Positions 70 to 5,618 of a stretch of 5,726 bases of DNA are shown in pieces; within the stretch, counting starts at the first letter, position 1; each line of letters begins with the position of its first letter. The translations under genes were made by a program, and so were the position numbers. Where the stretch lies: the IMG/VR virus record IMGVR_UViG_3300045988_000721, positions 1 through 5,726 of that record. One strand, written 5' to 3'. Below the pieces are notes generated by a model that worked only from the letters and a program-made list of their open reading frames with translations, searched no databases and was not told the DNA's origin. The stretch is from a virus.

Positions 70-297
70 TTACGATATGCCATTGTTATACCCTCTTTTG
101 ATAAGTTCAAGTTCGATTTCTTGTGTAAAGCTCTTTAAGTGCCAGATTTCGTCTAGCATCTTCTTTGCGGTTTCTATGTCCGCTATCTTGCGCAAGAGCT
201 TATATTGCGCGTTAATTTCTTTGTATTTTTTTTCGAGAATGTTTCTCAGTTCGTCTTCGGTCTGGTCTCTGACGTTCCAACTTTTGTTTAAGGCCAT
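70..297 (-). CDS. Hypothetical 75-aa protein, hydrophilic and probably all-helical or coiled-coil. No family recognised.
   Basis: ORF on the same strand as all phage genes and tightly packed between neighbours. A weak purine-rich RBS (gagaaagag) lies 8-16 nt upstream of the ATG at 297. There is no TM segment, signal peptide or recognisable motif. Confidence 0.55.
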   Translation of the reverse strand: MALNKSWNVRDQTEDELRNILEKKYKEINAQYKLLRKIADIETAKKMLDEIWHLKSFTQEIELELIKRGYNNGIS

Positions 298-422
298 GTC
301 TATTACTCTTTCTCGTTCGCTGCGTCCTTCAGTGCGTGATAGATCTCATCGAGCTTCTCAAGAATGTTCATCATGAGTTTGATGGCTTCCTTGGCGTCCT
401 TAATGCTGATAAGTGCTATGGT

Positions 423-815
423 TTACACCCCCTTTCTGTATTTTGTGTTGCGGGTATCAAAGTGCACCCACGATTTATAGACGATGATGCCGCAAGAATT
501 CGGTGCCAGCTTGTCAAGCTCTTTTGCTACCTCCTTCGGCGCCATGTCTTTTACGATGATATCAGCCGCCATGCCGCGCATGTGGAAGCTGTATTTTGCT
601 CCGCCTACTTTTTTGTTATGCTCTGGTGTTCTGTAGCCGCTTGTTATAATAACTGGCTTTTTGATTGTTTCGCGTAGGATGTCTAGTAGGATTGCTAGAT
701 ACTCATCTACAAAGACAATTGGTGACCCATCTTTACACGCGAATTCTTTTACTTTGAAGTGTTTTGTGATTTTGATTTCTGCTTGTTCGTCTAATATATA
801 CGCTTTAATTTCCAT
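423..815 (-). CDS. Zinc D-Ala-D-Ala carboxypeptidase-like cell-wall peptidase, Peptidase_M15_3 / M15A family. Candidate endolysin or peptidoglycan-remodelling enzyme.
   Basis: 130 aa. The N-terminal F-x-x-x-EF-x-C motif (HFKVKEFACKDG) is present. SGYRTPEHNKKVGG is followed by SFH-MRGMAA-D, which gives the zinc triad H78-x6-D85 plus H118 in WVHFD, and all three are intact. Strong RBS aagaggt at 823-829, 7 nt before the ATG. A sigma70-type promoter lies immediately upstream. Confidence 0.85.
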   Translation of the reverse strand: MEIKAYILDEQAEIKITKHFKVKEFACKDGSPIVFVDEYLAILLDILRETIKKPVIITSGYRTPEHNKKVGGAKYSFHMRGMAADIIVKDMAPKEVAKELDKLAPNSCGIIVYKSWVHFDTRNTKYRKGV

Positions 816-836
816 GGCTGTTTACCTCTTTTTTGT

Positions 837-865
837 ATTCTATCATATAATCGCCGAATTTTCAA
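837..865 (-). promoter_or_regulatory. Sigma70-type promoter reading into the peptidase gene and plausibly the whole gene ring.
   Basis: On the minus strand: TTGAAA (865-860), a 17-nt spacer, then TG-a-TAGAAT (extended -10 at 845-837). An RBS follows at about 823-829 and the ATG at 815. Confidence 0.6.
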
Positions 866-922
866 GGGTTGCGTTAGCAACTTTTGGAATTTCGGCGGTT
901 TCGCCGTTAGGCGTTTTCAACA

Positions 923-1038: not shown

Positions 1039-1114
1039 GTTATTGCGTTATTTTTTAATGGTTTTCAACTTTTTAACTACCTCTACTACTACGGCTACAA
1101 CAAGTTAATAAATA

Positions 1115-1162
1115 TATGCGCGTGCGTGCGTGCGCGTTTACGCGCGCGTATGCGTGCGCATA
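1115..1162. other. Long hairpin with a 22-bp stem and TTTA loop, built from two perfect alternating purine-pyrimidine tracts (1112-1137 and 1140-1163). Z-DNA-prone.
   Basis: Pairing 1115-1136 with 1141-1162 gives 17 Watson-Crick pairs plus 5 G-T pairs on the window plus strand. Those 5 positions become A-C mismatches on the minus strand. Confidence 0.7.
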
Positions 1163-1185
1163 CCTTTGAGCGCTTTAGCGCGAAC

Positions 1186-1240
1186 CGGTGTCCGCGCGAT
1201 TTCAGCGCGGTCAGCGGCTGATCAGTCAGCCGCGACACCG
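1186..1240. other. Compact three-way junction: a closing 7-bp helix enclosing two GC-rich hairpins.
   Basis: P1 is cggtgtc 1186-1192 paired with gacaccg 1234-1240. Hairpin A is cgcgc 1193-1197 / gcgcg 1205-1209 with a 7-nt loop. Hairpin B is gcggctga 1214-1221 / tcagccgc 1226-1233 with a 4-nt loop. All pairs are Watson-Crick. Confidence 0.6.
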
Positions 1241-1253
1241 TGCCAATAGGGGG

Positions 1254-1286
1254 TACGGGGGACGCGAGCGGAACGCGGCCCCCGTA
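1254..1286. other. GC-rich hairpin with 8 + 4 bp separated by one A/G mismatch and a 7-nt loop. On the plus strand it is followed by a T-rich tract, so it is terminator-like in plus orientation only.
   Basis: tacggggg 1254-1261 pairs with cccccgta 1279-1286, and cgcg 1263-1266 with cgcg 1274-1277. Downstream on the plus strand is tttcttgataattttaat. Downstream on the minus strand is ccccctattgg, which has no U-tract. Confidence 0.55.
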
Positions 1287-1341
1287 TTTCTTGATAATTT
1301 TAATCACTGAATAGGCTGATACATGGAGCCTTTAAACGGCT

Positions 1342-1377
1342 CTAGCCCAGTACCTTACTTGATAGGTACTGGGCTAG
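1342..1377. other. Perfect 14-bp hairpin with an 8-nt loop (plus TACTTGAT, minus ATCAAGTA), 15 nt downstream of the VP4 stop. Candidate origin or single-strand initiation structure, or an RNA 3'-end element.
   Basis: ctagcccagtacct 1342-1355 pairs perfectly with aggtactgggctag 1364-1377. There is no U-tract on either side, so it is not a canonical intrinsic terminator. Confidence 0.7.
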
Positions 1378-1391
1378 GTGACACCAAAATC

Positions 1392-2414
1392 TTATAAACC
1401 GCCCTTTTGGAGCTTTACAGACTTTTTGACAACTCTTTCTTTTGTCTTTAAATCCTCTGCGAAATCTGCATTTTTATACTTGAGTCGGTTTTGTTCGATT
1501 ATTGCTTTCTGCCTGTTTCTTTTGATTCTCCATAATCGTTCTGGGTTTTCTGCTTCCATCATTTTTTCATAGTATCGCGGAATTTGTGCTTGTTTCCCGT
1601 TGGTGCACTGAATATATCCTTTTTTCCAGATTTCTTCTTTGTGTTCTTGGTAATAAGTATCGCCAAGTCCTGGCTTTAGGCTCATACATGCAAATGGTTT
1701 TTGCTGGCCTAGCTCGTAGTATTGATTAGCTTTTTTTCCGTCAATTTCGTACATTTTTTTTGTAACATAGCCTGCAACATATCTATAGGTCTGTGGTGTT
1801 GCTTGTGCTATCTGTATTTGACCCATTTTCCATAGATTGCACATCCATTCACTTGTGTAATATCCGTTATGCCTTATTTTATAGATTTGTTTTAGGTCTG
1901 TTGGTTTCCATCCATATAAAATCATATGGTAGTGCGGTCTTGCTGTCTGTTCTCCGTACTCTCCTGCACAGAAATAGCGTAGTTGGCCCTTGTAAGCCTT
2001 CCTGAGACGTTTTAAGAACTTTTGTATATCCGGATATAGCAATGTTTGTACGCTCTCTGGTGCCTTTTCTCCCGGCTTCCAGACGTATTGAACTTTACGC
2101 ATGATTTCTCCTGTTTTAATTATCATTCCCGGTACATGGTCATCATCATAAGTTAGTGTGATAAACCACACTTCTTCTTTCGGCCATGCTCTGGCTTCTA
2201 GCTCTATTCGTGTTGTCCAGTCCTCTCTCTGTCGGATTCTGCATCCAATGCATTTCCCACATGGTATTAACATTACTTTTGGGTTGTACATCAAATCTTC
2301 ATATTTCATCTGTTTCCCGGCTAACTCAGAAAAGCGGGCAAGTGACATCACTCGCCCGCTTATTTCTTTGTTTTCCGGGTTGTACAGTCTTATAAGTGGC
2401 TTGTAACAACTCAT
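1392..2414 (-). CDS. VP4: Replication initiation protein VP4, an HUH rolling-circle endonuclease of the Microviridae gene A/VP4 type.
   Basis: 340 aa. It has the N-terminal CGKCIGCR zinc-finger-like motif, RCR motif 1 FITLTYD, the HUH motif in RPHYHMILYG and the two-tyrosine motif 3 YRYVAGYVTKK. Its ATG overlaps the VP2 TGA as ATGA (2411-2414). Confidence 0.93.
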   Translation of the reverse strand: MSCYKPLIRLYNPENKEISGRVMSLARFSELAGKQMKYEDLMYNPKVMLIPCGKCIGCRIRQREDWTTRIELEARAWPKEEVWFITLTYDDDHVPGMIIKTGEIMRKVQYVWKPGEKAPESVQTLLYPDIQKFLKRLRKAYKGQLRYFCAGEYGEQTARPHYHMILYGWKPTDLKQIYKIRHNGYYTSEWMCNLWKMGQIQIAQATPQTYRYVAGYVTKKMYEIDGKKANQYYELGQQKPFACMSLKPGLGDTYYQEHKEEIWKKGYIQCTNGKQAQIPRYYEKMMEAENPERLWRIKRNRQKAIIEQNRLKYKNADFAEDLKTKERVVKKSVKLQKGGL

Positions 2415-3265
2415 CTTAAATAGTCACCTGGCTTTTTCTTTTCGCCGTAATCTCCCGTTTTGTTTTGCGGTTTTGTAAATTCTTGCTTTCTGCCCTGTTT
2501 TGGCGTTGCTTTTTCGACTGCTTCTTCGGTTGCCTTGTCGGTTTTATCTCCGATTTCTGTTAGCGCTTTTTGCATTCCGTAAGGTGTCAAGTGCGTTTCG
2601 CTTAGCATTTGTTGCCAGCTTTGCGCCGCGTTGTACCAATCTGATGTGCTCCAACTGCTGCTACTGTATGCGTTTGGCACAAATCCTCCACTTCTGCTTA
2701 CCCCTAATGCGCTACTACTTGCAAGCCCTATACTTGCACCGCTAATTGTCCCGGCGCTACCTCCGGGTGTGCTCGCGCCCCCGTTTGCGAATGCTAGTAT
2801 AGGATTGATTCCTGCTTTTTTCATGTCTTCTACGGCTCTTTGATAGGCCGTGCTTGACATTCTTTCTTGCCATTCCCTGTTTTTCATGGCTTCGGTGCTG
2901 TTAAAATTCATTGCTGCCGTGTTTTCGATGTGGTTATAAATGCCTTGTGCAATTGCACTTAAGGTGTTATATCCCATTTGTTTTAACATGGAGCCGCTAT
3001 TGAATTGACTTTGCCTTTCTGCTTCCCCTGCTTGGTATTGATATGCACCTTCCAGCCATTTTTGCACCTGCTCGATGTTCGTTCCTGCTTGGCTTCCGCT
3101 TTGTGAATGTCCTCCGCCTTGGCTTACGCTGCCGCCTTGGCTTTGTGAATTTCCTGTCTGTCCCCATCCGCCGAATGCTCCGCCTATGTTTTTTACTGCT
3201 CCTGCAATGCTTCCTATTGCGTTGGCTCCTGCGCCAACCATTGACATAATGGTTAATGGATCCAT
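2411..3265 (-). CDS. VP2: Minor capsid / DNA pilot protein VP2.
   Basis: 284 aa. The N-terminus is hydrophobic and Gly/Ala-rich (MSMVGAGANAIGSIAGAV), followed by a Gly/Ser/Gln low-complexity tract. The central motif STAYQRAVEDMKKAGINPILA is characteristic of gokushovirus VP2. The gene sits directly after VP1. Confidence 0.85.
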   Translation of the reverse strand: MDPLTIMSMVGAGANAIGSIAGAVKNIGGAFGGWGQTGNSQSQGGSVSQGGGHSQSGSQAGTNIEQVQKWLEGAYQYQAGEAERQSQFNSGSMLKQMGYNTLSAIAQGIYNHIENTAAMNFNSTEAMKNREWQERMSSTAYQRAVEDMKKAGINPILAFANGGASTPGGSAGTISGASIGLASSSALGVSRSGGFVPNAYSSSSWSTSDWYNAAQSWQQMLSETHLTPYGMQKALTEIGDKTDKATEEAVEKATPKQGRKQEFTKPQNKTGDYGEKKKPGDYLR

Positions 3266-3303: not shown

Positions 3304-4989
3304 TTACAGCTTATACAGGCCCGGCACGCTATACAACGGCATCCGTCTTGTGGTTTTGTTTGCCACTCGCACGGCTCCGAAAAATTGCGGTTCGCTCTGC
3401 ACGATTAGTGTTCTTGCAATCTCTTCTTTGCCCTCTGCCATCCATTCTTGACTGAGTGTTGGCACAGCGTTGTAGTTGTCGGCGTAGTGCCAGAAATCTA
3501 ACGTCCCGTTTGCGTTGCTTCTCATGAGGCCAGATACTCGGTTTGGCTTCATGCGGTAGTCTGCCCATGCTTCCTGATAGCCGAATGTCTCTTCGTCAGT
3601 TGCTTCACCGGTTAGCATGATTTCTTTCTTCTTTACTGGCTGTTCGCCGAGATTTGCAAACTGTGGTACATAGTAGTCTAGCCTGTCGCGTCTGCTCCAG
3701 AATCGTTCCAATCCCTGCTGGTAACTGCGGTTGTGTCGTACACACGCAACACCGATTACAAACCCGTGCTCTTCAAAACTCTTTGTGAAGGAGCTTTCTC
3801 TGATAGGTGTTACGGATATTGCACCGGTTTCACCGATGGGTGTATCGTTTTCCGTCTGCTGGCCGCTGGTCTGTACAATCTGGTTTACGTTGACTTGGTA
3901 TCTGCCGCCTCCCAGATATTCCGGAATTTGTACGGTTTTATCACTGATTGTCACATCCCATAATGCGCGTACCTGTTCGCGGTACCGGCTGCCACCTCTG
4001 GCCAATGCTTCATAGTACTGCTGCACTGCTACGGCCTGTCTTAAGTCGTTGATTGTTGTTGCTGTTACGTTGCTCAGGTCTGCCGCTATTCTTTCGCCTG
4101 CTTTTGCGCCGCTGCTGATATATCCCAAAACTGCACGCGCTTTTTCATCTGTATTATTGTAATTTTGGGTCATCATTTGAGTTACTGAATGGTGCAGGTA
4201 CCCGGCTTCATTTGTCCAAGTTCCGTTGTTTTTAAGGTCTTGAATCGTTAATGGGTTGTCTTTTGCGTCTGCCCAATATATTGGTGCATTTCCGGTCATT
4301 GGCATCGTAATTTCCGGCCCACGCTGTGGGTAAGGCATACAGGATGTGAAGTAGTCGTGGTATTTGTTTACCGGAAGCAGATTCCCACCTAGTACTGCGT
4401 TTTGCAGGTCGGTTTCCAGTGTTTCCGTTTTTTCTGGCGTAAATTTGTATGTCACGTCTGCGTCGTCGCTTTTTAACACTGCCATGTTTTCCACGTTTTC
4501 ATCTCTAAAAAATTCGTTCCAGATTTTGACATATGCCCTGATTGGTAATGCGTTGATGCTGAATGGTTTTTTGATTTTCGTAGGCACACCCATGTAGTCC
4601 AAAATGGACTTTTCATTAGGTGCCGGGTTTGGTGTTGACGCATTGATTTTAATCTGTGGTACTGCGTATTCCTTGGTAGGCATCCATGGTGTTTCTTCAA
4701 CCTCACCCATGAAATGTCTGAAGTTATCCCACAAGATTCTGTTTGGCGTGTAGAAGTAGTAGAAATCAATGAATGCATCATCCATGACCGGATATTTCGG
4801 TGTGCTCATACGGATAATTGCCGTTGTGTCTACTTGGAAAGTGTCTCCCGGTAATACTTCGTCTACGAAAAATGGAATTAGTTTGCCGGAATCAAATGTG
4901 GTCAAGATAGTCTGGTCTCTGTTGAATCTTGTTCGGCTTGCGTGCATTTCCGGAATCTGAAGGAAATGTCTTTCATTATTTCTGTTCAT
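3304..4989 (-). CDS. VP1: Major capsid protein VP1 (Microviridae F-protein family, gokushovirus-type).
   Basis: 561 aa. The N-terminus is typical of the family (SRTRFNRDQTILTTFDSGKLIPFFVDEVLPGDTF) and the length fits gokushovirus VP1. Strong SD ggagga 5-10 nt upstream of the ATG. The start overlaps the VP3 end by 14 nt. Confidence 0.95.
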   Translation of the reverse strand: MNRNNERHFLQIPEMHASRTRFNRDQTILTTFDSGKLIPFFVDEVLPGDTFQVDTTAIIRMSTPKYPVMDDAFIDFYYFYTPNRILWDNFRHFMGEVEETPWMPTKEYAVPQIKINASTPNPAPNEKSILDYMGVPTKIKKPFSINALPIRAYVKIWNEFFRDENVENMAVLKSDDADVTYKFTPEKTETLETDLQNAVLGGNLLPVNKYHDYFTSCMPYPQRGPEITMPMTGNAPIYWADAKDNPLTIQDLKNNGTWTNEAGYLHHSVTQMMTQNYNNTDEKARAVLGYISSGAKAGERIAADLSNVTATTINDLRQAVAVQQYYEALARGGSRYREQVRALWDVTISDKTVQIPEYLGGGRYQVNVNQIVQTSGQQTENDTPIGETGAISVTPIRESSFTKSFEEHGFVIGVACVRHNRSYQQGLERFWSRRDRLDYYVPQFANLGEQPVKKKEIMLTGEATDEETFGYQEAWADYRMKPNRVSGLMRSNANGTLDFWHYADNYNAVPTLSQEWMAEGKEEIARTLIVQSEPQFFGAVRVANKTTRRMPLYSVPGLYKL

Positions 4990-5386
4990 TTGCTTCCTCC
5001 TTCTGCACCTTTTCTTGTGCGGCTTCCTGTGCCTTTTTCAGCTCTTCCAGCTTCATGGCTTTTACTTGTGCCGTTGCCATCATCTGGTGATACTCGTGTA
5101 TGTTCTGTGGCCATCCGGTAATATCCGTGATAGGCGTTTCTTTCTTGGATAGTGCTCCCTGTGACAGACTTGCCATAAAGGCTGGATCGAAACTCGCTTT
5201 CTTCACGATGTTTTTGATGTCACATTCGTCCGAATAGCTTTCAATTTCTGCTTGCACGTCAATACTCTCGGTTTCCTGTAGGTACTCTTTGCCGTTCTTG
5301 TCCTTTGCCCAGATGTATTGTTTTCGTTCGTTTTTGCCCGGTTCAGAAAAGAGGGGCTTTCGCCCCTCCTCATATCGTTTATTCAT
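4976..5386 (-). CDS. VP3: Internal scaffolding protein VP3.
   Basis: 136 aa, located directly upstream of VP1. It contains DECDIKNIVKK, matching the conserved ECDINNI(V/L)KK-type motif I recall from gokushovirus VP3, and an acidic/Lys-rich helical C-terminus. SD GGAGGG lies 9 nt upstream. It overlaps the VP5-like stop by 8 nt (ATGAATAA). Confidence 0.8.
   Translation of the reverse strand: MNKRYEEGRKPLFSEPGKNERKQYIWAKDKNGKEYLQETESIDVQAEIESYSDECDIKNIVKKASFDPAFMASLSQGALSKKETPITDITGWPQNIHEYHQMMATAQVKAMKLEELKKAQEAAQEKVQKEEANEQK
5345..5368 (-). terminator. Terminator-like hairpin located inside the first 42 nt of the VP3 coding sequence: 7-bp GC stem, GAAA tetraloop, TTTTCT tail.
   Basis: In minus sense: GAGGGGC-GAAA-GCCCCTC-TTTTCT. 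The stem pairs 5351-5357 with 5362-5368. It encodes EEGRKPLFS. Its function is uncertain and could be an attenuator, an RNA stability element or a translational pause. Confidence 0.3.
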
Positions 5387-5618
5387 TCGGTTTGCCCTCC
5401 CATACCTTTTCCTTGTCGTTCTGGAAGTTGCCCTGTTCGTCCTCGAAATCAGCCAGTTTGTAGCCGGTGTAGTCCTGCGGGCTCTGCCCGATGAAGGTCT
5501 TCTCGTCTTTTGCCATTACGTTGCACATGCGTGCAAAGGTCGCGTTGTTTTTGCTTTCGCCTACCCATGCATAGCACTTTGCTACGTTGTCCCAGATACC
5601 ATAATAGGAATGAATCAT
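5379..5618 (-). CDS. VP5: Small non-structural protein, VP5-like (gokushovirus ORF5 family).
   Basis: 79 aa. The pattern Y-x-I-x-D-x-x-A-x-x-Y ... A-R-M, followed by P-x-D-Y-x-x-Y-x-L-x-x-F-(E/D)-x-x-x-G, fits my recollection of the VP5 family. The position immediately upstream of VP3 is as expected. RBS aaagga lies about 9 nt upstream. Confidence 0.6.
   Translation of the reverse strand: MIHSYYGIWDNVAKCYAWVGESKNNATFARMCNVMAKDEKTFIGQSPQDYTGYKLADFEDEQGNFQNDKEKVWEGKPNE

Follow-up and report, generated by a model that had tools for sequence, protein, structure and literature searches.

A holin-less M15_3 peptidase in a clade of gut gokushoviruses, most likely captured from the endolysin of a Clostridia tailed phage

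Gene organization of the gokushovirus genome

The stretch of viral DNA analyzed here (the window; 5,726 nucleotides) is a complete circular gokushovirus genome, made up of 5,671 unique bases and a 55-base terminal redundancy. Every recognizable gene lies on the minus strand (Table 1), and this coding strand is compositionally skewed, with 37% A and only 18% T. The closest GenBank record is Human gut gokushovirus SH-CHD14 (KX513877), with core genes that are ~85% identical in nucleotides. The accessory region beyond VP4 holds a gene for a predicted zinc peptidoglycan peptidase, followed by two conserved small genes, which we call o38 and O75, and by a J/VP8-like ORF. The gene array headed by the peptidase, all of it on one strand, is closed at its distal end by a perfect hairpin just 3' of the VP4 stop codon, a possible terminator or origin element; an Rfam scan over the window gave zero matches. 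In a search for the host by way of prophages, no relative of the capsid was found in 185,000 genomes, and microvirus genes were absent from all of the bacterial loci that carry peptidase homologs. Whether the host envelope is monoderm or diderm is a matter on which we can only infer.

Table 1. Features of the window, with coordinates counted from its first nucleotide
Feature	Position	Strand	Remarks
VP5	5379-5618	minus	
VP3 scaffold	4976-5386	minus	
VP1 capsid	3304-4989	minus	
VP2 pilot protein	2411-3265	minus	
VP2 N-terminal Gly/Ala-rich hydrophobic segment	3194..3250	minus	residues 6-24, IMSMVGAGANAIGSIAGAV; Kyte-Doolittle 1.47
VP4 replication initiator	1392-2414	minus	
Accessory region, including peptidase gene	1391 down to 1	minus	
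Perfect 14-bp stem hairpin	1342..1377		15 nt 3' of VP4 stop
Sigma-70-like promoter (plausible), TTGAAA-17-(TG)-TAGAAT	837..865	minus	extended -10; 22 nt upstream of peptidase start codon
Shine-Dalgarno-like AGAGG	824..828	minus	8 nt upstream of peptidase ATG
M15_3 (MEROPS M15A-like) zinc peptidoglycan peptidase (predicted)	423..815	minus	130 aa, ATG start, catalytic domain only
o38, acidic amphipathic-helix protein	303..419	minus	38 aa; between peptidase and O75; conserved
O75, soluble helical-hairpin protein	70..297	minus	75 aa; always ~120 nt downstream of peptidase
J/VP8-like ORF	crosses window junction		39 aa, pI 12; after O75

Family, active site, and predicted fold of the peptidase

Profile searches place the product of the peptidase gene in the Pfam family Peptidase_M15_3 (PF08291; E=1.2e-21, 77.3 bits against a cutoff of 23.2), with the match spanning residues 19 to 120 of the protein and positions 2 to 108 of the 108 in the profile. 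There is a weak second Pfam match to PF05951 (M15_2) and a strong one to the "endolysin" family PHROG 894 (E=3.2e-44). The VanX (Peptidase_M15) and VanY families gave no Pfam match to the protein, and VanY-type structures reached an E value of ~0.05 at best in profile searches, the solved structure nearest by sequence being the Zn DD-carboxypeptidase 1LBU (E=2e-5). We consider the assignment to Peptidase_M15_3 to be sound. The predicted zinc ligands H78, D85, and H118, which form the pattern H-x6-D ... H, are invariant together with R62 and D120 in all 34 sequences of an alignment, in which residue numbers run one lower than the peptidase numbering used here, and in 169 to 171 of 173 peptidase ORFs that we retrieved from a set of 183 related microvirus contigs. 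A C-terminal tail of the form YRKG(V/I/M) is near universal among the microviral peptidases. Codon-position entropy is 1.15 bits at third positions against 0.54 at first and 0.38 at second positions, and this roughly threefold excess of the third position over the second indicates that the protein is under purifying selection.

An AF2 model of the peptidase is of moderate confidence (pLDDT 71). In a Foldseek search of the PDB, its best match was the ShhN domain 6dmy_B (probability 0.97, TM 0.53), a match whose weakness reflects the low confidence of the active-site loops in the model, and in BFVD it recovered viral M15 peptidases with E values down to 3e-10 and TM scores of 0.67 to 0.70. The modeled structure thereby points to the hedgehog/DD-peptidase (LAS) fold. 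An earlier reading of this DNA from its letters and ORFs only (the sequence-only reading) had called a 130-aa Peptidase_M15_3-type enzyme with a full zinc triad at this locus and had proposed HMM and structural checks of that call; the call holds in both respects, through the Pfam match, the LAS fold, and the alignment of the 1LBU motif described below. The active site is intact, and the protein is predicted to be catalytically competent as a soluble zinc peptidoglycan peptidase.

Promoter and expression

The same reading had made the peptidase the first gene after the only clear promoter. Its position stands, and the promoter is better described as plausible. Taken alone, the number of such sites is not above chance (5 found against 8.5 expected). 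In at least 64 of 145 relatives, matching hexamers recur at a distance of 15 to 30 nt ahead of the peptidase start codon, and their recurrence despite diverged spacers argues that the element is probably real. As the promoter-proximal first gene, the peptidase gene is presumably active as soon as expression of the genome begins. Such early expression is compatible either with an endolysin that is harmless in the cytoplasm or with a slow-acting enzyme directed at precursors.

Absence of a conserved holin, signal peptide, or membrane partner

We scanned all of the frames of the circularized genome for hydrophobic segments with a 19-residue Kyte-Doolittle window, a crude transmembrane (TM) predictor, applied to ORFs of at least 20 aa with shorter ones ignored. 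No minus-strand ORF of that size in the window reaches 1.4 besides the N terminus of VP2, whose Gly/Ala-rich segment is the only membrane-like segment on the coding strand; the hydrophobic ORFs of the window are all antisense. No TM-like ORF that could represent an overprinted membrane protein of the phiX174 E type was found in the three coding-strand frames of the circular genome. The peptidase shows neither a Sec signal peptide nor a SAR domain, its N terminus MEIKAYILDEQAEIKITKHFK being charged, and the longer N-terminal variants of the ORF in relatives likewise lack a hydrophobic window. Across 150 related genomes, a coding-strand ORF scores 1.6 or more in only 5, and none of these ORFs is conserved. 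These results uphold the statements of the sequence-only reading that the peptidase has no N-terminal signal or SAR-like segment and that no minus-strand ORF of the accessory region is hydrophobic; the nearby TM or holin-like ORF that it had named as able to remove the puzzle was not found as a conserved gene in these genomes. The VP2 segment might be proposed as a membrane-perturbing element, and peptidase-less relatives keep an equivalent segment (1.36 to 1.64) and have no TM ORFs either.

The antisense strand exceeds 1.6 in 150 of 150 genomes, with a median maximum of 2.64, a property that follows from the skewed base composition, since a coding strand with so little T disfavors hydrophobic codons. 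On this ground we rejected hydrophobic plus-strand ORFs, such as those at 661-1002 (113 aa) and 1378-1572 (64 aa), as holins and regard them as compositional artifacts of the T-rich antisense strand. Two further ORFs were rejected as partners of the peptidase, one of 47 aa (843-986) and a GC-rich one of 70 aa (1095-1307); of 84 genomes, only 11 carry the first and 3 the second, and neither ORF is hydrophobic.

Loci of peptidase homologs in Clostridia served as a positive control. At 23 of 29 of these, TM ORFs lie on the same strand within 1.5 kb, often abutting the peptidase gene, and several of them match the PHROG holin families 199 and 263. The comparison of these loci with the holin-less viral clade suggests that donor-type genes work with holins, whereas the microviral copies do not. 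Neither form of the canonical cassette, an endolysin paired with a holin or one with its own Sec or SAR export signal, is found in the window. How the peptidase is delivered to the wall without a holin is a real puzzle that extends across the clade.

The downstream small genes o38 and O75

Peptidase, o38, and O75 always occur in this order, and in nearly all of the genomes the two small genes directly follow the peptidase. We found o38 in 147 of 150 genomes, and its codon-position entropies of 0.42, 0.19, and 1.07 bits make it the most constrained gene of the three-gene module. It is the only strongly amphipathic peptide among the candidate viral products (hydrophobic moment 0.70) and carries a net charge of -2.3. 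In the window, its start codon has become ATA (417-419) with the loss of the ATG, an internal ATG lies at 372-374, and the frame continues that of the peptidase two codons after its TAA. We rejected stop codon readthrough fusing the peptidase to o38 as a general mechanism, as this in-frame layout is found in only 9 of the 147 genomes, the window included.

O75 is likewise under strong purifying selection as judged by codon-position entropy. AlphaFold models it with confidence as a helical hairpin (pLDDT 88), fold searches with the model returned only generic helical hairpins with no informative structural neighbor, and the protein matches no Pfam family. The family was found in microviruses only; among loci retrieved via O75 alone, the peptidase lies immediately upstream in 46 of 47, and no O75 homolog was found beside the Clostridia peptidase homologs.

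A degenerate DNA search with the core motif of o38 recovered a sister clade of eight genomes that share the same backbone (VP1 ~45% identical) and lack the peptidase. All eight carry o38 and an ORF weakly similar to O75 (HMM E ~1e-4), which suggests that the linkage of the small genes to the peptidase is phyletic rather than functional. Although co-occurrence is perfect within the clade, we therefore rejected o38 and O75 as peptidase-specific partners; on present sequence comparisons they appear to belong to the backbone. This weakens the suggestion that one of the neighboring small ORFs might encode a partner: the products of the two conserved genes are soluble, and o38 is retained where the peptidase is missing. 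The existence of the sister clade also implies that such viruses are apparently able to exit without the enzyme, and the peptidase may be an enhancer instead of the lysis effector.

Distribution, allele exchange, and origin

The sequence-only reading had proposed a survey of how often microviruses carry this gene and beside which neighbors, and the survey places it, with o38 and O75 downstream, throughout the clade. A search of ~5.8 billion proteins with the peptidase returned 1,683 clusters, the top 120 of which are 66 to 93% identical to it and lie mostly on contigs of 5 to 6 kb. The gene is present in 76 of the 80 IMG/VR contigs that are nearest by capsid sequence, the remaining 4 being mostly truncated, and its locus between VP4 and VP5 is fixed among relatives. 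It is now a fixed gene of a large gokushovirus clade from the mammalian gut, and gokushoviruses are among the most abundant phages of that habitat. The copies at this locus differ far more than their surroundings. The peptidase of KX513877 (ARQ16046.1) and the unannotated one of KT264792 are only 63% and 50% identical in amino acids to the copy in the window, in genomes whose core genes are each ~85% identical to those of the window, which implies that peptidase alleles are exchanged at a fixed site. Kirchberger et al. (PMC9239249) have noted recombination of the peptidase, with which this pattern agrees.

The nearest nonmicroviral homologs are 40 to 50% identical over the whole catalytic domain, share the active-site residues, and come nearly all from Clostridia (Lachnospiraceae, Oscillospiraceae, Faecalibacterium, and others); one of them resides in a clear tailed-phage prophage that includes genes for terminase and portal. 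M15 domains are also embedded in very large phage proteins (700 to 1,300 aa) that are possibly lysins of the tail or tape measure. The most likely origin of the microviral gene, judged from these relationships, is capture from the endolysin of a Clostridia tailed phage or prophage.

Published work already covers the gene, its origin, and the role presumed for it, and the sequence-only reading erred in implying that the observation was unexplored. In 2012, M15_3 peptidases of human-gut microviruses, five Gokushovirinae and six Alpavirinae, were described by Roux et al. (PMC3394797). These authors assigned the gokushoviral copies a source among Faecalibacterium-like Firmicutes, observed holins next to the bacterial homologs, and suggested that the enzyme serves as an endolysin. 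Gokushovirus M15_3 peptidases are mentioned again in later work (PMC7062461, PMC9239249, PMC11499846), and in the KX513877 entry the gene at the corresponding position is already annotated as "peptidase M15". These papers on microviral peptidases do not discuss the lack of a holin. What we add is the measured, clade-wide absence of a conserved membrane ORF, set against the holins beside donor-type phage genes, and the conserved module of peptidase, o38, and O75.

A predicted exit endolysin and its alternatives

We favor, with moderate confidence, the view that the peptidase is an exit endolysin, a domain captured from a tailed phage of Clostridia that accumulates inside the cell and breaks down the wall once the membrane barrier fails. 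The transcription unit would run, in rightward order, through promoter, peptidase, o38, O75, J-like protein, VP5, VP3, VP1, VP2, and VP4. The folded peptidase would build up in the cytoplasm and would cut stem-peptide bonds of the wall after the cytoplasmic membrane has ceased to be a barrier, so that it presumably acts on mature peptidoglycan at lysis. Its access to the wall would be holin independent, by way of membrane damage or collapse of the proton motive force (PMF) late in infection. Viral products that might inflict such damage are VP2 in excess, by means of the hydrophobic Gly-rich segment at its N terminus, and the o38 peptide with its amphipathic helix; both are weak candidates, the former scoring only 1.47 and the latter being acidic. 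Another conceivable route is leakage at high enzyme levels, as for some mycobacteriophage LysA proteins, whose overexpression leads to holin-independent lysis (PMC6116114).

Some members of the M15 clan act on cytoplasmic precursors, and the peptidase could instead remain inside the cell as a "protein antibiotic" that cuts the stem-peptide bond of precursors, whether soluble or lipid linked. With UDP-MurNAc-pentapeptide, lipid II, or D-Ala-D-Ala as its target, it would starve or poison wall synthesis until growing cells lyse, as an enzymatic analog of phiX174 E or Qbeta A2. We regard this as unlikely, and a shade less likely still is the specific scenario of precursor-destroying single-gene lysis that evolved from a conventional endolysin after its capture by a genome too small for a holin. 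Such a mode of action would agree with the failure to find an export device of any kind in 150 genomes, with a promoter-proximal gene expressed from the start, and with a DD-carboxypeptidase as the nearest solved relative. It would also have parallels, in that a block of murein synthesis is the classical lysis mode of small phages (PMC3394797) and VanX, of the same clan, provides a precedent for lysis without export: according to the summary of Sohya (2014) in PMC11514776, cytoplasmic overexpression of VanX lyses Escherichia coli by blocking D-Ala-D-Ala incorporation. The enzyme itself, however, is 40 to 50% identical, across the entire domain, to phage endolysins that are associated with holins; its active site shows no remodeling, and its Pfam matches are to M15_3 and M15_2 rather than to the VanX and VanY families. 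Moreover, canonical peptidase and amidase endolysins build up in the cytoplasm of tailed-phage hosts with no early lysis.

Equally doubtful is export with the help of a viral partner, in which o38 or O75 would be a secretion chaperone or membrane-active helper that carries the signal-less peptidase across the membrane. The invariant gene order, the strong selection on both small genes, the amphipathic helix of o38, the confident hairpin of O75, and the in-frame placement of o38 behind the peptidase stop in nine genomes would all suit such a role, and Gp1 of phage Ms6, a small nonmembrane protein that mediates holin-independent export, provides the precedent (PMC6116114). Against it stand the sister clade that keeps o38 and the O75-like ORF with no peptidase to export, the failure to find an O75 homolog beside the Clostridia peptidases, the acidity of o38, which is unlike typical membrane-lytic peptides, and the lost ATG of o38 in the window. 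Least probable of all, in our estimate, is a peptidase carried in or on the virion for local digestion of peptidoglycan during genome delivery rather than exit. The large phage proteins with M15 domains noted above are possibly lysins of this sort, and Gp7 of the microvirus Ebor was detected in virions, but in trace amounts only (PMC11980548). The peptidase gene is part of the nonstructural accessory region, with no fusion to VP2, the pilot protein, and peptidase-less relatives share the same VP1 and VP2 architecture. A T=1 capsid, furthermore, has little spare volume.

Two lysis strategies are known in small phages, namely, murein-synthesis inhibitors and holin-endolysin cassettes. If a holin-less M15 peptidase does suffice for lysis, it would represent a third and would also provide a very compact lytic enzyme of 130 aa, possibly active against Clostridia.

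Comparison with known systems

The genes of Roux et al. and KX513877 share with the window the Pfam family, subfamily, habitat, VP4-VP5 locus, inferred Firmicutes origin, and proposed endolysin role. The endolysins of Clostridia tailed phages and prophages (PHROG 894; e.g., that of Faecalibacterium phage FP_Toutatis) have the same active-site residues at 40 to 50% identity, but they are usually adjacent to holin-like TM genes and often fused to extra domains (200 to 390 aa), whereas the microviral enzyme is a bare 130-aa domain without a holin. In 1LBU, the zinc D-Ala-D-Ala carboxypeptidase of Streptomyces albus G (MEROPS M15A), the SxHxxGxAxD zinc-binding motif aligns with that of the peptidase over an alignment of only ~45 residues, so that bond specificity is not transferable; it is moreover a secreted enzyme of 213 aa with an additional N-terminal domain, unlike the microviral protein. 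VanX, the D-Ala-D-Ala dipeptidase, is a zinc peptidase of the same M15 clan from a different Pfam family.

Gp7 of Ebor (proposed Tainavirinae) is likewise an accessory muralytic enzyme of a microvirus, active in vitro on crude peptidoglycan (PMC11980548), whereas the activity of the enzyme in the window is predicted from sequence. Ebor belongs to another microvirus lineage with a Gram-negative host and has a predicted 45-aa membrane protein, Gp1, of which the clade studied here encodes no conserved counterpart. The Gp1-LysA pair of Ms6 resembles the layout described here in that a signal-less endolysin has a small soluble protein encoded alongside it, and its delivery in Ms6 is holin independent. 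Both o38 and O75 are small nonmembrane proteins encoded next to the endolysin as in the Ms6 arrangement; they are not limited to endolysin-bearing genomes, o38 being present in the eight peptidase-less ones, and Ms6 retains holins for timing. Like the gokushovirus, phiX174 is a small-genome phage of minimal coding capacity without a holin-endolysin cassette. Its E protein, overprinted in another gene, is anchored in the membrane and inhibits murein synthesis, whereas the gokushovirus offers no coding-strand TM frame and has a hydrolase as its candidate effector.

Small genes downstream of the peptidase

Immediately downstream of the M15 peptidase lies o38, a small soluble ORF shared by 147 of the 150 related genomes and under the strongest constraint of any gene in the accessory region. 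The GenBank relatives examined seem to carry no annotation for it. In the window genome its start codon is ATA in place of ATG, and this codon is in frame with the peptidase TAA, two codons past the stop. The same in-frame layout of the two genes is seen in nine genomes, and the ATA start in only three, all within that set. The combination hints that in the sub-lineage of the window o38 might be coupled to the peptidase by termination-reinitiation or by read-through.

The next ORF, O75, is confined to microviruses (583 protein clusters) and matches no Pfam family; structure prediction confidently yields a two-helix hairpin. The name "adenine C2-methylase RlmN" that some JGI records give it seems to be a misannotation. 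Its 3' end is overlapped by a strongly basic ORF that crosses the circular junction of the window and is present in 149/150 relatives; this is probably a J/VP8-like DNA-condensing protein.

Features of the window discussed in the text (positions in the window)
Feature	Position	Strand	Description
J/VP8-like ORF	81-83 down to 1, then 5671-5635	-	39 aa, pI 12, MAYRKKMNMRKDKRMFNVTARKTKTINLSQKPMRGGIRL
O75	70-297	-	75 aa, conserved
o38	303-419	-	38 aa, acidic, amphipathic helix, consensus MALISIKDVKQAIRIMMQILEKLDEIYHALHD...
o38 start/peptidase stop junction	417-425	-	reads TAA-ACC-ATA
Inverted repeat	849-900		24 nt, 79% complementary, overlapping the -35 region of the peptidase promoter
GTTTTCAAC(A/T)TTT repeat, four copies	913-1074 (at 913, 934, 995, 1061)	+ coordinates	non-coding, between VP4 and peptidase
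GC-rich island	1101-1300		59.5% GC vs ~38% elsewhere
Alternating purine-pyrimidine palindrome	1110-1167		inside GC-rich island, GCGCGTGCGTGCGTGCGCG...
GC hairpin	1254-1286		inside GC-rich island
Inverted repeat	1342-1377		perfect 14 bp, 8-nt loop, directly 3' of VP4 stop
VP2 residues 6-24	3194-3250	-	Gly/Ala-rich, hydrophobic, N-terminal in pilot protein

A sister clade without the peptidase

Eight gokushoviruses of 5.3 to 5.5 kb (L208, L211, L215, L220, L221, L236, L270, and L274) form a sister clade (VP1 ~45% identical) in which neither the peptidase nor an ORF with a membrane-span-like segment was found. The position of the peptidase is taken there by two different soluble ORFs of ~70 aa each, while o38, the J-like ORF, and VP5 are all retained; o38 occurs also in genomes that lack the peptidase. 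Within the window, the coding strand encodes a membrane-like segment only at the N terminus of VP2, and this segment is kept in both clades, with and without the peptidase.

Non-coding elements between VP4 and the peptidase

The four copies of the GTTTTCAAC(A/T)TTT repeat, which on the coding strand read ...GTTGAAAAC, are possible iterons, regulator sites, or stacked -35-like elements, and the inverted repeat at the peptidase promoter could serve as an operator. The perfect inverted repeat following VP4 may act as a terminator or as a hairpin of the replication origin. A 70-aa ORF (1095-1307) runs across the GC-rich island but is present in only 3/84 relatives and is therefore probably not a gene.

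Viral and cellular relatives of the peptidase

The GenBank annotation of the gokushovirus KT264792 covers only VP1 to VP5; its accessory region also encodes an M15 peptidase of 128 aa, 50% identical to that of the window, together with o38 and O75, all three of them unannotated. The closest cellular homologue, also with 50% identity, comes from a Lachnospiraceae MAG (L085:5998-6393) and is a bare peptidase of 131 aa. No ORF with a membrane-span-like segment was found within 1.5 kb of it, and it sits in a tailed prophage between the genes for the small and large terminase subunits, an unusual site for an endolysin.
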